Positions 4,458 through 33,254 of a stretch of DNA of 34,584 nucleotides are shown one piece after another. The notes beneath the pieces were generated by a model. The model did no database searches. It was not told where the DNA came from and worked only from the letters and a program-made list of their open reading frames with translations. The stretch's first letter is position 1, and each line of letters opens with the position of its first letter. The position numbers and the translations under genes are program-made. This stretch comes from a virus (lineage: Duplodnaviria > Heunggongvirae > Uroviricota > Caudoviricetes), in IMG/VR virus record IMGVR_UViG_2734482772_000010. The stretch is one strand, 5' to 3'.

Positions 4458-5338
4458 ACACTCCTCGTCAGTATTCTGGCGGCCATTGCACTTAATCCCG
4501 GAGACATGCGGTTGAATGCTGTGCCGGCGGCGTTAAGCTGCCCGGAAACGGTATCCAGAGCACCTGCAATATTTCTTTTGTCCACACCACTCAGCGCCGA
4601 CTGCGCCTGCTGTACATACGTGGCTGCCTCACTGGCTGTTCTGGCCAGACTGATGGCATCGGGCATGGATTCAGAGAGTGCATTAAACGCCGGAACACTT
4701 TTCCCCAGAGCTCCGGATATATTACCCAGTCCGCTCATCAGTCCCGGCACACGGGTCAGCGCGACAACGGGGTTACCCTTCATTTTCTGCGCCACCCGAA
4801 CGGCACTGATAGTGGTCTGGAGTACAGACTGCGCCTGTTTCGCATAGTTGACGCCGTTACGGACGAACTGCGCCACCCCGGAAGGCGATGGAACAGCACC
4901 AGATACGGCCCCGGCACCGGGAACCTGCCTGCGTATTGCCGGCGGTTGCAGAGGATTTTTCGGGTCACCGGTGTATTCCCGGAGAGACACGGTGGCACTG
5001 ACAGCCAGCACGTTACCGGTGCTGTCTGTCTGCTCGCTGGTTGCGGTCACATCGGTAATCACGAACCAGCCGCGATAGTCACCGTTGCCGAAGACCAGCG
5101 CCAGTGCCTGATGGGCCTTCATGGCTGTTCGCACTCTCGCCAGCTCCACGTCGGGCACACAATAATGCTGATGGAAGACCAGGCTTATCTGGATTTCGTC
5201 CAGCCTGTCGCCGACGAACTGCAGGCCGGGTTTACCCTCGATGCGGGCATGCTCCGCATAATCGACGCCGGACGTGGCCTCGAAGCCGTCCCAGTAGGTA
5301 ATCAGTTCAAACTCAATATCACCCAGTACGGCAAACAT
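4454..5338 (-). CDS. tail protein with P2 gpU-like N-terminal domain (Mu N / DNA circularisation protein-like)
   Basis: 294-aa ORF; N-terminal ~130 aa (MFAVLGDIEFELITYWDGFE...) resembles gpU-family tail proteins; Ala/Ser/Gly-rich C-terminal extension; directly downstream of tape measure gene. Confidence 0.55.
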   Translation of the reverse strand: MFAVLGDIEFELITYWDGFEATSGVDYAEHARIEGKPGLQFVGDRLDEIQISLVFHQHYCVPDVELARVRTAMKAHQALALVFGNGDYRGWFVITDVTATSEQTDSTGNVLAVSATVSLREYTGDPKNPLQPPAIRRQVPGAGAVSGAVPSPSGVAQFVRNGVNYAKQAQSVLQTTISAVRVAQKMKGNPVVALTRVPGLMSGLGNISGALGKSVPAFNALSESMPDAISLARTASEAATYVQQAQSALSGVDKRNIAGALDTVSGQLNAAGTAFNRMSPGLSAMAARILTRSV

Positions 5339-26649: not shown

Positions 26650-28419
26650 ATGACCCCGGCACTGACTGAAAAACTGGTTGAAACAGCCCGCGCGGCACGT
26701 AATGCGGGGCATGGTAAACGCGGCGCAGTATACGACGCTGCCTGTGCTGAACTTGGCATGTCCCGCGCCACTCTGCTGCGCAGGCTGAAGGAGGTCTCTG
26801 TGACTGATAAACGCAAAAAACGCGCCGATGCCGGGCGCAGCGCCCTGACCCGCGACGAAGCCGCGCTGATATCTGCCACACTGCGTGAGGCCACCCGCAA
26901 GAACGGTAAGCGTCTCTATTCCATCGCGGATGCAGTGGAAACCCTGCGGGCTAACGGCTTTATCACCGCAGGCAGAACAGATGAAACCACCGGTGAGTTT
27001 TTCCCGTTGTCTGAAGATGCCATCAGCCGTGCTCTGCGTAACTATGGCCTGCACCCGGAACAACTGGATGCCCCTGCACCACATACCGAAGTGGCCAGTC
27101 TGCATCCCAATCATGTCTGGCAGATTGACGCCTCACTCTGCACGCTTTACTACCTGAGCAATGGACATAAAGGGCTGCAGGTGATGGACAGCGCGAAGTT
27201 CTACAAGAACAAGCCCGCTAACCTTGCCCGTATCGCCAGTGACCGCGTGTGGAGTTACGAGATTACCGACCATGCCAGCGGCTGGATTTACGTTGAGTAT
27301 GTGACGGGCGCGGAATCAGGTGAGAACCTGTGTTCTGTGCTTATCAACGCCATGCAGGAGCGTGGCGGCGCAGACGTGCTACACGGCGTGCCGAAAATAC
27401 TCTATCTCGACCCCGGCTCGGCAAACACCGCGGGTATGACGAAAAACATGTGCCGCTCACTGGGCATCGACCTGATAGCGCACAAGCCGCATAACGCCCG
27501 CGCCACCGGACAGGTGGAAAAGGCGCGTGACATTATCGAACGCAAGCTGGAGCCGGGTCTGAAGTTCCGGCCGGTTCACAGCCTGGAAGAACTCAACGCG
27601 CTGGCCGCGAAATGGCGCAGCCACTTTAACGCCACGGCTGTTCACAGCCGCCACGGTAAAACCCGCACGGATATCTGGCTGAAGATTACTGCTGAGCAGC
27701 TGAAAAAAGCGCCTTCCGTTGAGGTATGTCGTGAACTGGCTGTGGCGGCACCAGAACTCCGCAAAGTCACGCCAAAACTTCGTGTCTCGTTCCGGGGCAC
27801 TGAATTTGACGTATCAACGGTACCGGGCGTACTGGTTGGTGAAAAACTGATGATTACCCGTAACCCATGGCGCAGCGATGTGGCACAGGTGGTTCTGACC
27901 GGTGAGGACGGCCACGAGACGTTCTTCCTGGTCGAAGAGGTCAGAAAGAACGAGTTTGGCTTTGCTGAAGGCGCGGCGGTATTTGGCGAAAGTTACAAAG
28001 CCCTGCCGGAAACCCCGGCACAGATGGCGGCAAAAGAAACTGAAGCGCTGGTTACCGGTACAGACAACGCCGCAGATGCAGCCGCCGCACGCAAGGCGAA
28101 GGCGCTGCCGTTCGGCGGGCGGCTTGACCCGTATAAACATATCGACGACACCACACTTCCGGCCTATATGCCGAAGCGTGGTCAGGCCTCTGACGTACGC
28201 GGGCCGCGCACTGAACAACGTCCCATGACTCATGTGGAGGCCGCGAAAGCCCTGCGCGATAAGTTCAGCGCCGACGGCCTTACCTGGACGCCGGAACATT
28301 ACCGCCAGTTAACGGCACAGTACCCGGACGGCGTACCGGAAGCCGCACTGGATGAAGTCATGGCCACGCTGACCACGCCGGCCCGCAGCAGCGTTATCAG
28401 CATTGTTAACGGCAACTAA
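26650..28419 (+). CDS. DDE transposase (Mu A-like)
   Basis: 589-aa ORF; candidate DDE triad in HVWQIDAS, ILYLDPGSANT and ATGQVEKA with retroviral-integrase-like spacing; followed by AAA+ ATPase gene as in Mu A-B. Confidence 0.8.
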   Translation: MTPALTEKLVETARAARNAGHGKRGAVYDAACAELGMSRATLLRRLKEVSVTDKRKKRADAGRSALTRDEAALISATLREATRKNGKRLYSIADAVETLRANGFITAGRTDETTGEFFPLSEDAISRALRNYGLHPEQLDAPAPHTEVASLHPNHVWQIDASLCTLYYLSNGHKGLQVMDSAKFYKNKPANLARIASDRVWSYEITDHASGWIYVEYVTGAESGENLCSVLINAMQERGGADVLHGVPKILYLDPGSANTAGMTKNMCRSLGIDLIAHKPHNARATGQVEKARDIIERKLEPGLKFRPVHSLEELNALAAKWRSHFNATAVHSRHGKTRTDIWLKITAEQLKKAPSVEVCRELAVAAPELRKVTPKLRVSFRGTEFDVSTVPGVLVGEKLMITRNPWRSDVAQVVLTGEDGHETFFLVEEVRKNEFGFAEGAAVFGESYKALPETPAQMAAKETEALVTGTDNAADAAAARKAKALPFGGRLDPYKHIDDTTLPAYMPKRGQASDVRGPRTEQRPMTHVEAAKALRDKFSADGLTWTPEHYRQLTAQYPDGVPEAALDEVMATLTTPARSSVISIVNGN

Positions 28420-28429
28420 GGAGGGAAAC

Positions 28430-29596
28430 ATGCTGGTACTGAAGCAGCAACTGAAAGAGGCCCGTATTCCACAGGCGGTGGTGGCGAGAGCTGTCGATGT
28501 TTCTGAGGCCACGCTGGCCCAGATTGTGAATCATAACGCGTGGCCCCGCACCCGCCCCGGAGAAGTGCGCCGGCGTCTTGCGTCCTGGCTGGAAAGTCAG
28601 GGGATTGATACAACGAAGAGTTTTGATGCTGTACAGGGCGCGGCCACGCCCCGTACAGCGGGTACCACAGATAAAACGAGCCTCAGTGAGGAAGAGAATA
28701 TGTTACTCAAAAAACAGGTGTTATTTCCAGCAACCAAAAAAGCGTTTGGTCTTTTCCGTGACCCGTTCGCCGACGAAGCCATGCAGGGTTCTGATGATGT
28801 GTTCACCACCCCGGACATTCGCTACGTGCGTGAGGCGCTGTACCAGACAGCCCGTCATGGCGGGTTTATGGCCGTCATCGGTGAGTCCGGTGCGGGTAAA
28901 TCCACGCTGCGCCGCGACCTGACTGAACGTATCAACCGCGAGAATGCGCCGGTGATTGTTATCGAGCCATACGTCATCGCCATGGAAGACAACGATGTGA
29001 AAGGGAAAACCCTGAAGGCAGCAGCGATTGCCGAAGCCATTATCAGTACCATCGCACCACTGGAAAGCATCAGACGCAGTCAGGACGCCCGCTTTCGCCA
29101 GTTGCATCGCGTCCTGAAAGACAGCAGCCAGGCGGGGTTCAGCCACGTTCTGGTGATTGAGGAGGCCCACAGTCTGCCTATTCCGACACTGAAACACCTC
29201 AAACGCTTTTTTGAGCTGGAGTCCGGTTTCAAAAAACTGCTGTCCATCGTGCTGATTGGCCAGCCGGAACTGGCGACAAAACTGTCTGAACGCAATATGG
29301 AAGTCCGTGAAGTCGTTCAGCGCTGTGAGGTGGTCGAACTTCTGCCTCTGGACAATAACCTTGAAGAGTTTCTGACGTTCAAACTGCAACGGGCCGGTAA
29401 ACAACTGACGGACATTATGGACGCCGGCGCAGTGGATGCCATACGTGCCCGCCTGAGCAATCCGGGAAGTCACCGTAAAAACAGGGTCAGCCTGCTGTAT
29501 CCGCTGGCCGTCAGTAACCTGGTGATAGCCGCCATGAATCTGGCTGCTGAAATCGGTGTTCCACAGGTCAACGCTGACGTTGTCAAAGGGGTTTAA
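28430..29596 (+). CDS. transposition ATPase (Mu B / TniB-like AAA+)
   Basis: ORF-track ORF 28403..29596 (TTG) with ATG at 28430 after GGAGGG; Walker A GESGAGKST and Walker B-like HVLVIEEAH. Confidence 0.8.
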   Translation: MLVLKQQLKEARIPQAVVARAVDVSEATLAQIVNHNAWPRTRPGEVRRRLASWLESQGIDTTKSFDAVQGAATPRTAGTTDKTSLSEEENMLLKKQVLFPATKKAFGLFRDPFADEAMQGSDDVFTTPDIRYVREALYQTARHGGFMAVIGESGAGKSTLRRDLTERINRENAPVIVIEPYVIAMEDNDVKGKTLKAAAIAEAIISTIAPLESIRRSQDARFRQLHRVLKDSSQAGFSHVLVIEEAHSLPIPTLKHLKRFFELESGFKKLLSIVLIGQPELATKLSERNMEVREVVQRCEVVELLPLDNNLEEFLTFKLQRAGKQLTDIMDAGAVDAIRARLSNPGSHRKNRVSLLYPLAVSNLVIAAMNLAAEIGVPQVNADVVKGV

Positions 29597-29598
29597 GA

Positions 29599-29868
29599 AT
29601 GAAATCCATCACAGGTATCAACCAGCAAATCAGCAAAGTGCAGTCAGCCATTATGGCGCTTATGGCGACGAACACGGATGTACAAAGCATCACCATCAGG
29701 GGCAATAAACCTGTCATCCGCGTTTCCCGGAGTGCGCATTGCATGCGCATGCTTGAACAGGGGAAAGCCAGTTATCTGTATACCGGTCATGACCACAGGG
29801 GACATTTCCGTCAGGGCGTTTTCGAACTGCACGGCTGTCGCGTCGTGTGGCCGGAATCTTTGTGGTAA
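29599..29868 (+). CDS. hypothetical early protein, 89 aa
   Basis: Starts 3 nt after B stop; no family recognised. Confidence 0.4.
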   Translation: MKSITGINQQISKVQSAIMALMATNTDVQSITIRGNKPVIRVSRSAHCMRMLEQGKASYLYTGHDHRGHFRQGVFELHGCRVVWPESLW

Positions 29869-29893: not shown

Positions 29894-30424
29894 ATGGCAA
29901 AAAGTACAAAAGGGGCAAAACGTATCAAGTCCGCAGCGGCACTCTGGGTACCAGGAACACGCGAAGAGGTCATTGAGGGAATCAGACTGCTCGGTGACGC
30001 ACAACGTGAACTGGTCAGGGCTGAAACAGAAATGAATGACGCCATTGGCGATATCACCGCACGTTATGCCCCGCTCACCGAGAGCCTGAAAAAACGCATG
30101 TCAGAACTGCAGTCCGGTATCCAGACATGGTGTGAGGCACACCGTGATGAACTGACCGGCAACGGGAAGGTGAAGTTCGCTAACCTCACCACCGGCGAGG
30201 TACAGTGGAGAAACCGTCCACCGTCAGTCAGCATTCGCGGGGCGGATAATGTTATTGAGCTACTGAGACGTCTGGGGCTTGAGCGATTTATTCGTGTAAA
30301 AGAGGAAATAAATAAAGACGCCATCCTGAATGAAAAAGACGCCGTGAAAAATATTCCCGGTATTACCATAAAAAGTGATATTGAGGATTTTTCAATAATT
30401 CCTTTTGAGCAGGATGTGCAGTAA
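29894..30424 (+). CDS. gam: host-nuclease inhibitor protein Gam (Mu Gam / Ku-like)
   Basis: ORF-track ORF 29678..30424 trimmed to ATG at 29894 after GGAGAAA; KRIKSAAALWVP..ETEMNDAI..WCEAHRDELTGNGKVKFANLTTGEVQWRNRPPSVSIRG..GITIKSDIEDFSIIPFEQ closely parallels Mu Gam as recalled. Confidence 0.85.
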   Translation: MAKSTKGAKRIKSAAALWVPGTREEVIEGIRLLGDAQRELVRAETEMNDAIGDITARYAPLTESLKKRMSELQSGIQTWCEAHRDELTGNGKVKFANLTTGEVQWRNRPPSVSIRGADNVIELLRRLGLERFIRVKEEINKDAILNEKDAVKNIPGITIKSDIEDFSIIPFEQDVQ

Positions 30425-30521
30425 ACACACCACGTTAATTATTTAATAAAAACATTTTCTTTTTTATTCCGGCGTCAGCGCCGTGGGCTTCTGCACGCCG
30501 GAAACAGAGGAGAATTAAATC

Positions 30522-30716
30522 ATGATATTTAAATGTATTCAGTGCGAGAGGGATATAACAGCCCTGCGTTTTCACAGCGCCATCGCCGTGATGTCCGGTA
30601 AGTACCACATACCTGCGGTACGCGTCACCCTGATCTGCCCGTACTGCAGCCAGCATTTTTCGGCAGACGTGCCCGTCATGGAATTCTCCCGCCCTGACAG
30701 GGAGGACGCGCAATGA
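30522..30716 (+). CDS. small zinc-ribbon protein, hypothetical
   Basis: 64-aa ORF with two CxxC pairs (CIQC ... CPYC), GAGGAG RBS. Confidence 0.45.
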   Translation: MIFKCIQCERDITALRFHSAIAVMSGKYHIPAVRVTLICPYCSQHFSADVPVMEFSRPDREDAQ

Positions 30717-30985
30717 TTACCCCACAGGAAGCACGACAGCGCACCCGAACCCTTGTTGAACACTATGTCAACGAGTGTGAATGCCGCGACCTCACCGATG
30801 TGAAGCACGTCCTGACAGCGCTAATCAGCATGGCCGCTCAGGCCATTGTGGCGACCAACGGAAAGGAGGCTGCCCTGCAGGTACTGGTGAACACACTCAC
30901 CCACACGGCAAAGCATGAGGTGCCGTACCGGATGGAAACCACTGCAGAAGGCAACCTGAACATCACCGTCGACCGGAAGCACTGA
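30713..30985 (+). CDS. hypothetical early protein, 90 aa
   Basis: ATGA overlap with upstream ORF; no family recognised. Confidence 0.4.
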   Translation: MITPQEARQRTRTLVEHYVNECECRDLTDVKHVLTALISMAAQAIVATNGKEAALQVLVNTLTHTAKHEVPYRMETTAEGNLNITVDRKH

Positions 30986-30994
30986 GGGCGCGGC

Positions 30995-31291
30995 ATGACA
31001 CGGAACACCATACTCACCCGCACCGACCTCTATCGTCTGGCCCTGCAGCGTTTCGGGCCGGATGCACAGGCCCTGAAACTGACAGAAGAGGCCGCTGAAC
31101 TGGCGGCCAGTGCCGCCCGCAACCTGAACGGACAGGGCAGCGAAAGTGACCTCGCGGCAGAGCTGGCAGATGTGGAAATCATGACAGAGCAGTTGCGCCT
31201 TCAGGGGATGGACCGGCTGATTGACTTCCACAAACAGAAAAAACTGGAACGTCTGGCTGCACGACTGGGCGTGATTTACACGAACGAGTAA
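30995..31291 (+). CDS. MazG-like nucleotide pyrophosphohydrolase (small all-alpha type)
   Basis: 98-aa ORF; EEAAE ... ELADV matches the EExxE-N-ExxD metal-binding motif of MazG/HisE-type NTP pyrophosphatases. Confidence 0.55.
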   Translation: MTRNTILTRTDLYRLALQRFGPDAQALKLTEEAAELAASAARNLNGQGSESDLAAELADVEIMTEQLRLQGMDRLIDFHKQKKLERLAARLGVIYTNE

Positions 31292-31305: not shown

Positions 31306-31521
31306 GTGGCTGACATACTCAGGGAAATCACCGCATGGACACTGATTCTTACTGGCCTGGCGACATGCCTCAGTGCGGGGGCAGCCCTGGCTGCCCTGCT
31401 GATACACATAACAACACAGTGGCTATGGGAAAAGCTTAAAGCAGCATACAGCCTGAAAGAACTGTCCGACGCTGTTCGGGCATGGGAACAGCAAAAAAAT
31501 ACCGGAGATACTGAACAATGA
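31306..31521 (+). CDS. small membrane protein, hypothetical
   Basis: 71-aa ORF from GTG preceded by GGGAGG; one hydrophobic segment. Confidence 0.4.
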   Translation: MADILREITAWTLILTGLATCLSAGAALAALLIHITTQWLWEKLKAAYSLKELSDAVRAWEQQKNTGDTEQ

Positions 31522-32036
31522 CAGACCAGAATAAACACATTGAGAAACTGAAAAAGTTGCTGGCGCTGGCCGCATCCGGCAACCCGCACGAGGCCGCTCT
31601 GGCACTGCGCCGTGCCCGTAAACTGATGGATGTTCACGGCATTACACATTCCGACATAGCCATGAGTGATATTGATGAAACCATCAGCCACTACTGGCCG
31701 ACAGGCAGCCTCCGTCCGCCGCGCTACATGCTGGGCCTGATGAACATCATCCGTGAGGCATTTGGTGTTAACTCCATCATTCACCCCGGCACGCATCCGG
31801 GTGTGGGGTTCTACGGCAACCGGGAACGTGCGGCACTGGCTGCATATACCTGGGAAGTGCTGGCCCGCCAGCTGAAAAAGGCGCGTCAGCAGTATGTCAG
31901 TGCACAGAACAAAAGAATAAAAACCGCCACCCGCACCAGCCGTGGCGACCAGTTTGCCGAAGGCTGGGTGCTGGCCGTTATCAGTGAAATACAGACTTTT
32001 GCCCTGACCGATGACGAGCGTGAACTGATGCAGTAG
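31518..32036 (+). CDS. hypothetical early protein, 172 aa (DUF2786-like N-terminus)
   Basis: N-terminal IEKLKKLLALAASGNPHEAALALRRARKLMDVHGI resembles DUF2786 helical domain; ATGA overlap with upstream gene. Confidence 0.5.
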   Translation: MTDQNKHIEKLKKLLALAASGNPHEAALALRRARKLMDVHGITHSDIAMSDIDETISHYWPTGSLRPPRYMLGLMNIIREAFGVNSIIHPGTHPGVGFYGNRERAALAAYTWEVLARQLKKARQQYVSAQNKRIKTATRTSRGDQFAEGWVLAVISEIQTFALTDDERELMQ

Positions 32037-32199
32037 TGGCTGGAACATAAATACCCGCAGACGCAAACCACCAGGGCGCGTAAACCGGGAAGAAGTCGCA
32101 ATGGCGACGCCTCGCGCTATGCGGGGTTTCGAGAAGGGCAGAACGTCAGACTGCACCGCCCGGTCAGTGGGCAGGAACAACAGAAACTGGAGGCGGATA

Positions 32200-32607
32200 A
32201 TGGATAACGACAGCGATAACATTATTCATCTGCTTCAGCCAGATCCTGATGCAGAAGCCCAAAAACTGCTGAATGTGGTTATTTCTGAACGGAAGAATAA
32301 CGAACAAAACCAGTGCCGGCATACCCGGACAACAGTCTCTGAAATCAACCGGACGCTGACCTGTTCACTGTGCGGGTCTGTACTGGATCCATTTGAATTT
32401 ATCCTTGAGCGTGCCCGTAATGCTGAAAATATCGTACATGAAATTAAACGTCTTCATAAAAAGCTGGAAGCACTTCGTGAATCTGTCGCAGTCCTTGAAC
32501 GTGAAGAGAAAAATGCAAAAGCACGATTGCGGAGTGCCAGAACAGCAATCCTCTTTGCGGAAAATGACCTGAAAAATATTGAACTGGAGAAAAAATATAA
32601 TGGCTGA
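32200..32607 (+). CDS. hypothetical protein, 135 aa, Cys-containing with C-terminal coiled coil (AT-rich)
   Basis: ORF-track ORF 32101..32607 trimmed to ATG at 32200 after GGAGGCGG; LTCSLCGS motif; AT-rich codon usage. Confidence 0.45.
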   Translation: MDNDSDNIIHLLQPDPDAEAQKLLNVVISERKNNEQNQCRHTRTTVSEINRTLTCSLCGSVLDPFEFILERARNAENIVHEIKRLHKKLEALRESVAVLEREEKNAKARLRSARTAILFAENDLKNIELEKKYNG

Positions 32608-32803
32608 AACTATTGCCTGTTTTCTTTTCTGGTACACATATGCAGGATTATGCAGTGCCCGGCTTCATTATGCACTGGGCTTCGGTAACCATTATGACAC
32701 CGCGAATTACATCCTGTATATGACAGCTGTCATGCTGTTCTGGCCTGTCACCCTGCCAGCTGCAACTGACATTGCTGCCGGCAGACTGAAAAAGCGGGGT
32801 TGA
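32600..32803 (+). CDS. small membrane protein, hypothetical (AT-rich)
   Basis: ORF-track ORF 32579..32803 trimmed to ATG overlapping upstream stop; two hydrophobic segments. Confidence 0.4.
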   Translation: MAETIACFLFWYTYAGLCSARLHYALGFGNHYDTANYILYMTAVMLFWPVTLPAATDIAAGRLKKRG

Positions 32804-32804
32804 T

Positions 32805-33254
32805 ATGCAGAAAAAACGACTGATTCAGCTTATCCATATTGCCCGTAATGAACTGGGTCTGGATGAAGACACCTACCGCCAGATGTTACAGGGGCTGACC
32901 GGTAAAGCCTCAACCAAAGGAATGGATACCACACAACTAAACTGCGTGCTGGAATCCATGAAAAAGAAAGGCTTTCGGGTTAAACCTGCCAGAAAAGCCA
33001 GCTCCGGTTTACCGCTGGATGACCATCCGCAGTCCAGGAAAATTCGTGCGCTATGGCTTGAAATGGCTGCTGCCGGCATTGTTCGTGACCGTTCAGAAAA
33101 TGCATTAGCGCGGTGGATCAAGCGGGAAACGGGCATCAGCGCCCTGCACTGGCTCAGTACTGAACAGGCAAGCAGTGTTATTGAGAAACTGAAGAAGTGG
33201 CAGCACAGAGCTGCGGGAGTCAAACATGAGCGACCTGAATCAGTTTCGAAGTAA
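32805..33254 (+). CDS. gemA: GemA-like regulatory protein (Mu gp16 family)
   Basis: 149-aa ORF; N-terminus MQKKRLIQLIHIARNELGLDEDTYRQML resembles GemA family; immediately upstream of and overlapping the Mor-like gene, as in Mu. Confidence 0.6.
   Translation: MQKKRLIQLIHIARNELGLDEDTYRQMLQGLTGKASTKGMDTTQLNCVLESMKKKGFRVKPARKASSGLPLDDHPQSRKIRALWLEMAAAGIVRDRSENALARWIKRETGISALHWLSTEQASSVIEKLKKWQHRAAGVKHERPESVSK

Follow-up and report, generated by a model that had tools for sequence, protein, structure and literature searches.

Mu-type phages typically encode small early proteins that bind zinc and whose function is unknown, and what sets expression of the "semi-essential early" genes of Mu is, to our knowledge, not settled. 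Among them, gp6 (E5) and gp13 (E14) of phage Mu are small CxxC-rich proteins encoded by accessory early genes around gam. The Mu Com protein is a Cys4 protein of 62 amino acids (aa) that binds a hairpin adjacent to a translation-inhibition structure and activates the translation of mom (PMC6483171). The window analyzed here is the whole 34,584-nucleotide (nt) stretch of IMG/VR record IMGVR_UViG_2734482772_000010, nearly an entire BcepMu/Mu-like transposable prophage with 97% identity to Escherichia phage PhiKM. The study concerns two small open reading frames (ORFs) behind its gam gene, ORF1 and ORF2, and the hairpin in the gap ahead of them. ORF1 is a near-core gene of the early operon encoding a predicted zinc ribbon, ORF2 is an optional add-on behind it, and the gap is a conserved element with counterparts in phage Mu. 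The features concerned are as follows.

30425-30521, 97-nt gap after gam
30425-30466, + strand, AT-rich, U-rich 5' part of the gap with a conserved TTTTCTTTTTTATT run
30467-30503, + strand, GC-rich imperfect hairpin (TTCCGGCGT ... ACGCCGGAA, inner CAG/CUG and GCC/GGC stem)
30522-30716, + strand, ORF1, predicted 64-aa Cys4 zinc-ribbon protein (phrog_3401; RefSeq WP_001295928-type)
30700-30716, + strand, ORF1/ORF2 junction, with a GGGAGGA Shine-Dalgarno sequence at 30700-30706 and an ATGA stop/start overlap at 30713-30716
30713-30985, + strand, ORF2, 90-aa facultative partner (phrog_3691; RefSeq WP_112036189)

ORF1 shares with Com its size, the four cysteines in two knuckles, the origin in a Mu-type phage, and the overlap with the start of the next gene. 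However, its knuckles are separated by 30 residues compared with 16 in Com, its family is acidic to neutral while Com is basic (net charge +6), and it belongs to the early operon while Com belongs to the late com-mom operon. Unlike Com, ORF1 is followed by ORF2 or a MazG-like gene, with no mom and no conserved translation-inhibition hairpin. Both knuckles of gp6 align to those of ORF1, and second knuckles of the CPHC/CPWC type are common to gp6, gp13, and ORF1, but the Mu genes occupy different operon positions and the similarity is marginal; no ORF1 homolog was found among the early proteins of phage Mu beyond this knuckle-level similarity.

ORF1 and ORF2 are genes of the early operon

The first-pass annotation of this interval, made by a model from the sequence alone, had given the coordinates of the interval, the two CxxC pairs of ORF1, the overlap of the two frames (4 nt, ATGA), and the 97-nt gap after gam, all of them correctly. 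For comparison, approximately 94 loci with an ORF1 homolog were gathered from GTDB genomes and IMG/VR, and the ratio of nonsynonymous to synonymous substitution rates (dN/dS) was estimated by the Nei-Gojobori method. The source genera include Erwinia, Pantoea, Mixta, Trabulsiella, Buttiauxella, and others, and protein-database matches add Yersinia, Klebsiella, Salmonella, Citrobacter, and Morganella as carriers. Every one of these loci has an open ORF1 frame, with one copy reading through into the MazG-like gene downstream and one carrying the substitution C42R. The dN/dS of the sense frame is 0.065 in the clade linked to gam (clade A), 0.11 in the clade linked to DUF3164 (clade B), and 0.15 between the two, values that mark strong purifying selection on ORF1. 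An intact ORF2 is found in 50 loci; of its six reading frames, the sense frame gives the lowest dN/dS, at 0.49 within clade A, 0.085 within clade B, and 0.37 between the clades. The high value in clade A arises because alleles with swapped N-terminal halves circulate there.

Both genes are called on the + strand in E. coli prophages by RefSeq, through the Prokaryotic Genome Annotation Pipeline (PGAP), under the label "hypothetical protein". Each also matches a PHROG family of unknown function over its full length, ORF1 with phrog_3401 (3e-40 over residues 1-64 of 64) and ORF2 with phrog_3691 (1.4e-54 over residues 1-90 of 90). The first-pass statement that no family could be recognized thus holds for Pfam and NCBIfam but not for PHROG. 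Neither PHROG family has a Pfam model or a structure solved by experiment. A GAGGAG Shine-Dalgarno sequence lies ahead of ORF1 at 30507-30512 (+). Purifying selection, intact frames, PGAP calls, and PHROG matches bear out the earlier view of both frames as coding genes of the early operon; the two are shown to be real genes, coupled in translation, in the early (transposase) operon of a BcepMu/Mu-like prophage.

Of 5,426 complete E. coli genomes, 637 (~12%) contain a match to a 901-bp piece that covers the end of gam, both ORFs, and the MazG-like gene, and strains of sequence type 131 (ST131) are among the E. coli genomes that carry the prophage. With the prophage present in about one of every eight complete E. 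coli genomes, ORF1 and ORF2 count among the common unknowns of clinical E. coli.

As a separate observation, ORF2 alleles include intragenic mosaics (P0032, P0033, and P0036-P0038), some of which join a clade-B-type N-terminal half to a clade-A-type C-terminal half.

ORF1 is near-core and ORF2 is optional

The two genes that flank the pair in the window are needed to follow the gene order among relatives. The true start of gam is at 29894 and its end at 30424.

29894-30424, + strand, gam, Mu Gam-like DNA-end protection (Pfam Phage_Mu_Gam, 3.9e-41; phrog_491, 1.8e-73)
30995-31291, + strand, MazG-like all-alpha nucleoside triphosphate (NTP) pyrophosphohydrolase (phrog_2245, 4.4e-34), the usual neighbor downstream of ORF1

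In clade A, to which the window belongs, gam is followed by the 64-aa ORF1, always by ORF2, and then by the MazG-like gene. In clade B, a DUF3164 gene stands exactly in the place of gam, and the ORF1 behind it encodes 62-70 aa with about 50% identity to the protein of the window. What comes after the clade-B ORF1 is not constant: it can be a 51-aa ORF, a 55-aa membrane ORF, or the MazG-like gene, the last either directly or with ORF2 in front; in the direct arrangement, the MazG-like gene uses the same ATGA overlap. Distant transposable phages, with an ORF1 of 24-35% identity, keep an order that begins with gam or DUF3164 and ORF1 and ends with GemA and Mor; in between lie, in most cases, the MazG-like gene and, in many, a DUF2786 gene. 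When loci are selected by ORF1, 93 close ones and most of the 34 distant ones have the gene immediately behind gam or DUF3164, and in the distant relatives L100, L103-L105, L107, L109, and L160 its start touches or overlaps the stop codon of gam. Selection by the MazG-like gene gave 79 loci, 70 of which have an ORF1-family gene within 900 nt upstream; in the exceptions, the MazG-like gene comes straight after gam or DUF3164, or a different 59-aa gene lies between them.

ORF1 is therefore a near-core gene of the early operon, not variable cargo. The first-pass annotation had treated it as a variable accessory gene, which does not agree with its presence in most MazG-selected relatives, nor with its place after gam or DUF3164, which is kept in all but a few of the roughly 125 ORF1-selected loci. 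In the best-supported picture, ORF1 is co-expressed with the end-protection gene and, in distant relatives, translationally coupled to it.

The behavior of ORF2 is different. In 51 of 52 viral contigs selected by ORF2, ORF1 lies immediately upstream, the remaining contig having a truncated ORF1, and the ATGA overlap with ORF1 is found in all 52 ORF2-bearing contigs. ORF1 without ORF2 is common among the related loci, and ORF2 effectively never occurs without ORF1, so the two are not the obligate pair that had been supposed. ORF2 is shown to be an optional, faster-evolving, and recombining add-on that always sits right behind ORF1, and the comparison separates a conserved core gene from optional cargo.

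The expectation that this region varies between phages was right for much of its content. ORF2, the MazG-like gene, the 51-aa ORF, the 55-aa membrane ORF, the 59-aa gene, and an extra ORF found between the hairpin and ORF1 in two contigs all come and go, and gene content in the slot between ORF1 and DUF2786 or GemA differs between phages, but ORF1 itself does not follow this pattern. In the equivalent slot of Mu, SfMu carries a DUF5420 gene.

Strict co-variation of ORF1 alleles with gam or DUF3164 was considered and rejected, because gam is found together with an ORF1 of the clade-B type in L151, L152, and L155. DUF3164 replaces the unrelated gam (window 29894-30424) at the same position in the sister clade (L004 3374-3985; L006 2881-3492). 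This same-position swap, together with the occurrence of gam beside a sister-clade ORF1, suggests that DUF3164 is a functional stand-in for Gam. The synonymous substitution rate (dS) between the clades is about 0.45 for the transposase and ATPase genes and 1.5-3 from the 89-aa gene onward (window 28403-29868 versus L004 1918-3356), and this jump along the operon indicates a recombination boundary near the end of the ATPase gene. In L111-L116 (e.g., L112, ~4890-5003), the 3' end of gam upstream of ORF1 has stop codons and appears degraded; ORF1 is intact there, with GemA directly next to it.

Properties of the ORF1 and ORF2 proteins

The two CxxC pairs of ORF1 are C5/C8 and C39/C42. In a wide alignment of the family (30-42% identity to the first sequence of the alignment) all four cysteines are invariant, as are M1, L37, P40, Q44, and one proline near the C-terminus, and the second knuckle keeps the pattern C39-P-[H/Y]-C42-x-Q44 across homologs of 30-50% identity. 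The exceptions among the complete, unfragmented copies listed are C42R in L004 and C39R in P0061; the former, at L004 4064-4252, is found in one E. coli strain in which the fourth zinc ligand is mutated (CPHR for CPHC). AlphaFold2 modeled ORF1 with a mean predicted local distance difference test (pLDDT) score of 87.3 as a three-stranded beta sheet (strands 16-25, 30-38, and 45-51), and ORF1 is confidently predicted to be a Cys4 zinc ribbon of about 62-64 aa.

Searches of the PDB with this model using Foldseek gave NrdR N-terminal domains, ZPR1, and a chain of an RNA polymerase II complex as the best matches (E 0.12-0.4, template modeling (TM) score ~0.5), and searches of BFVD gave stand-alone phage "NrdR-like N-terminal domain" proteins and one Gordonia-phage MazG-like protein (E 0.03-0.08). 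An exhaustive HMMER search with the ORF1 profile against 1.84 billion representatives returned 19 hits, which are small homologs or fragments plus a few giant repeat proteins judged spurious; such a low number indicates that the ORF1 family is small. Most distant members are strongly acidic, with a net charge of -5 to -10 (pI ~4.1-4.5) compared with +6 for Mu Com. ORF2 has the conserved motifs E-C-x-C and (Q/H)A(I/V)VATNG, and a fold search with its model found no neighbor at TM > 0.38.

Sequence searches of Pfam, NCBIfam, PADLOC, and the PDB with ORF1 and ORF2 gave no functional assignment and only sub-threshold zinc-knuckle noise, with no PADLOC match for either ORF. The profile and structure searches proposed in the first-pass annotation thus yielded the PHROG families and a zinc-ribbon fold, but no function from Pfam, NCBIfam, PADLOC, the PDB, or Foldseek. 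In the literature on DUF3164, BcepMu, Mu early-operon elements, and the RefSeq accessions, nothing was found on ORF1 or ORF2.

A conserved hairpin follows gam

No earlier gap in the operon is as large as this one of 97 nt, the others measuring -17 to 25 nt. Its description as AT-rich holds for the first 43 nt, with a GC content of 19%, but not for 30467-30503, which is 70% GC and forms the hairpin. The minimum free energy of the RNA fold is -29.5 kcal/mol (z = -4.4), and the stem cells are paired in 98.7% of cases across 37 distinct sequences, compared with 32-53% with slid partners. One compensatory change of a stem pair, from C-G to U-A, distinguishes the clades. Clades A and B share about 96% identity over the core, which consists of the T-run, the hairpin, and AAACAG, in a region where synonymous sites are saturated (dS of the flanking genes 1.5-3). 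The gap is thus a conserved element and more than a spacer. In the minimum free energy fold, the U-run and the ORF1 Shine-Dalgarno sequence (30507-30512) together form an outer helix.

A covariance model built from this lineage matches one place in the window, 30452-30527, with 94 bits. Outside the window, it detects the element in Mu (L094 2350-2430; 34 bits, E ~1e-4), in SfMu (L250 501-580; 24 bits), and in a Mu-like phage inserted in a Stx phage (19 bits). In each case gam is immediately upstream, and the gene that comes next differs, being gp11 in Mu and the DUF5420 gene in SfMu. The post-gam gap of phage Mu is 98 nt long and has the same flanks around a hairpin of different sequence; a T-run and a TTAATTCA-type flank are common to it and the gap described here. 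The Mu gam-gp11 and SfMu gam-DUF5420 regions therefore resemble this locus in the position after gam, the U-rich 5' flank, the GC-rich hairpin, the AAACAG-type 3' flank, and the GAGGA Shine-Dalgarno sequence, but differ in the stem and loop sequences and in the downstream gene, which is unrelated to ORF1. The differing stem and loop sequences are consistent with a conserved structure. Since the same element precedes different genes in Mu and SfMu, it belongs to the junction downstream of gam and not to ORF1. The element carries no annotation in the Mu record, and the best Rfam hits reach 15-22 bits against gathering scores of 42-50.

Two conventional roles were considered for the gap and set aside. 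No intrinsic terminator is called in it, the T-run lying 5' of the stem and the 3' flank reading AAACAG, and no promoter-like site was found there. As a side observation, a DUF5420 gene of about 550 bp is inserted after the hairpin in SfMu (L250 569-1123) and likewise in the Yersinia Mu-like phages H53, H56, and H57, so the gam-gp11 junction acts as a cargo slot in Mu-family phages too.

Possible functions of ORF1, ORF2, and the hairpin

Taken as a whole, the picture we favor, of ORF1 as a near-core zinc ribbon, ORF2 as an optional add-on, a hairpin shared with Mu, and the roles proposed below, has in our view about an even chance of being right. ORF1 may act through protein-protein contact and not through nucleic-acid binding, a reading favored because most members of its family are strongly acidic; this preference on grounds of charge is tentative, and the chance that it fails is somewhat the larger. 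Most likely, ORF1 would modulate a host or phage factor of DNA metabolism during early lytic growth. ORF2 may tune or extend the activity of ORF1, as its dependence on ORF1 suggests. The hairpin may be an mRNA-level element for processing, stability, or translation start, which would set the expression of whatever gene follows gam, independently of ORF1. It is perhaps more useful than the ORFs themselves, as it offers a testable handle on the expression of the Mu "semi-essential early" genes.

A bolder reading is that ORF1 represents an unrecognized class of small, mostly acidic zinc ribbons that work with Gam or DUF3164, for example by neutralizing a host nuclease or a DNA-end defense sensor. 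ORF2 would then be a fast-diversifying partner for specificity or counter-counter-defense, and the hairpin a post-transcriptional switch, shared with Mu, for accessory early genes. We would not expect this reading to hold. The host-takeover role that the first-pass annotation had proposed for ORF1 and ORF2 is purely inferential; its observation of the locus is confirmed and its interpretation partly supported. The pair is ordinary in kind, and nothing in it overturns current understanding.

Several points weigh against the favored picture. ORF1 is absent in some relatives, in which the MazG-like gene directly follows gam or DUF3164, and is therefore not essential. The ORF1 of the window is neutral (net charge 0) and the clade-B copies are slightly basic (+1 to +3), so the argument from acidity rests on the wider family. 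The fold search with ORF1 returned generic zinc ribbons only, none of them significant (Foldseek E > 0.02), and ORF2, modeled as three helices and a beta hairpin, was predicted by AlphaFold2 with low confidence (pLDDT 64). The outer helix that would sequester the ORF1 Shine-Dalgarno sequence is paired in just 67% across relatives, and neither homology nor experiment ties ORF1 or ORF2 to any target. Finally, comparison of the ORF1 family by hhalign with a Com-family profile built here gave a probability of 79.8% over 32 columns, with both knuckles aligned.

The last point bears on one of the two main rivals to protein binding, a Com-like role in RNA binding, the other being a partnership with the MazG-like enzyme. 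ORF1 could be a Com-type RNA-binding zinc finger that controls the translation of the overlapped ORF2 or MazG-like gene, or that acts on its own leader hairpin, which we consider unlikely. In addition to the profile score, the single sequence of Mu Com gave 62.5%, while unrelated zinc-ribbon controls gave 0.7-5.6% (Ogr 0.7%, NrdR 1.1%, and rubredoxin 5.6% with the CPxC knuckle alone aligned). The size (62 aa for Com), the Cys4 arrangement, the occurrence in Mu-type phages, and the overlap with the next gene's start agree as well, and the ORF2 Shine-Dalgarno sequence of clade A is covered by a hairpin, UUCUCCC/GGGAGGA. However, ORF1 has no Pfam match to Com even at E ≤ 1, and other Cys-rich Mu proteins score 39-52% (gp6/E5 47-52%, gp13 39% over 10 columns), hence the background of such comparisons is high. 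The acidic-to-neutral charge of the family and the knuckle spacing of 30 residues also depart from Com. The resemblance to Com is marginal and, judged from sequence comparison, would serve as a lead and not as membership in the Com family.

A Com-style translation-inhibition hairpin at the ORF1/ORF2 junction was examined and rejected, as it is confined to clade A, is absent in clade B, and is no more stable than shuffled sequences (z = +0.4). A requirement for autoregulation of ORF1 through the leader hairpin was likewise rejected. In Mu and SfMu, no ORF1 homolog lies downstream of the hairpin, so ORF1 is not needed for it, and in distant phages ORF1 is fused to the gam stop and the hairpin is absent. 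Rubredoxin (CxxCG ... CPxCG) was discarded as an identity for ORF1 on the low hhalign score and the lack of a Pfam match.

The second main rival to protein binding holds that ORF1 is an accessory subunit or regulator of the MazG-like NTP pyrophosphohydrolase, the two forming one module, and it appears quite improbable. In its favor, the gene usually found behind ORF1 in relatives both close and distant is the MazG-like gene, with or without ORF2 in between, ORF1 is present in 70 of the 79 MazG-selected loci, and the two genes are coupled by ATGA in clade B. One natural read-through fusion is known (L062), and the apparent N-terminal zinc ribbon of the Gordonia-phage MazG-like protein aligns to the ORF1 model (TM 0.52, root-mean-square deviation 2.9, E 0.054). 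However, this Foldseek match is not significant, and the fusion is a single contig and a possible sequencing error. Moreover, each gene occurs without the other: the MazG-like gene lies directly after gam or DUF3164 without ORF1 in L239, L244, L246, and L247, and ORF1 lacks the MazG-like gene in L009, L012, L070, L104, L109, and L111-L116. The fusion itself is a frame of 160 aa at L062 4001-4483.

The N-terminal zinc ribbon of NrdR belongs to the same fold class as ORF1, the two-knuckle, three-stranded zinc ribbon, and a role of ORF1 as a DNA-binding regulator of this kind, on early phage or host promoters, was weighed and found highly doubtful. NrdR ribbons and the stand-alone phage "NrdR-like N-terminal domain" proteins are its best fold neighbors (TM 0.5-0.53, Foldseek probability 0.97-1.0), but their E values of 0.03-0.4 are not significant (0.12-1.5 for NrdR chains), the hhalign score is 1.1%, and the ORF1 family is acidic. 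NrdR also has an ATP-cone, while ORF1, a single domain of 64 aa, has no second DNA-binding or effector domain.

It is very improbable that the prophage expresses the pair to benefit the lysogen, as a toxin-antitoxin or superinfection-exclusion module. Zinc-ribbon antitoxins exist, the two genes are small and overlap, and a phage protein labeled MqsA is among the weak fold matches of ORF1. However, the genes lie inside a lytic early operon downstream of the transposase gene and gam with no promoter-like site of their own, PADLOC matches neither, ORF1 is kept in lineages without ORF2, and the ORF2 model resembles no known toxin fold.

The weakest reading, that ORF1 and ORF2 are chance open frames and that the true feature is an antisense ORF annotated in PhiKM or no gene at all, draws on a minus-strand CDS over ORF1 in the PhiKM GenBank record and is already refuted by the comparative data, in which antisense dN/dS is 1.1-1.4 against 0.07-0.15 in the sense frame, the length and cysteines of ORF1 are kept at 30-50% identity, and full-length PHROG matches and PGAP calls fall on the + strand.

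30435-30713, - strand, antisense 92-aa ORF, not a gene (frame dN/dS 1.06-1.45; no PHROG or Pfam match)

The PhiKM record (PQ738613) annotates a shorter version of this antisense frame (L001 6036-6257, -) and omits ORF1. With a dN/dS of 1.06-1.45, the frame is under no coding constraint; the deposited annotation is therefore on the wrong strand and is corrected here.

Neighboring genes of the early operon

The remaining genes of the early operon in the window are arranged around gam and the MazG-like gene as follows.

26650-28419, + strand, transposase
28403-29596, + strand, ExeA/MuB-like ATPase, after the transposase
Between the ATPase gene and gam, + strand, 89-aa HI_1482-family gene
After the MazG-like gene, + strand, 71-aa membrane ORF
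After the 71-aa membrane ORF, + strand, DUF2786/DUF7168 gene, with GemA and then Mor further on

The MazG-like protein has the conserved motifs EEAAEL ... ADVEI in the alignment, which are of the EExxE ... ExxD metal-binding type and place it in this family, and some PGAP records call it a "nucleoside triphosphate pyrophosphohydrolase family protein"; its Pfam match to PRA-PH is weak (E = 0.05).

The DUF2786/DUF7168 gene (region 31518-32607 of the window) encodes 172 aa here, while most close relatives have a version of 227 aa. Next comes a 168-aa ORF at 32101-32607 (phrog_1621) with a CxxxxC...CxxC-like motif and possibly a coiled-coil tail, going by weak Pfam matches of the coiled-coil type. 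The full-length 168-aa ORF is found only in a few relatives (L023, L039, and L178) and appears to be an alternative cassette. A non-coding gap of 197 nt (32608-32804) lies ahead of the GemA-like gene (32805-33254), and at the place corresponding to this gap the Mu record has a "semi-early promoter" annotated.

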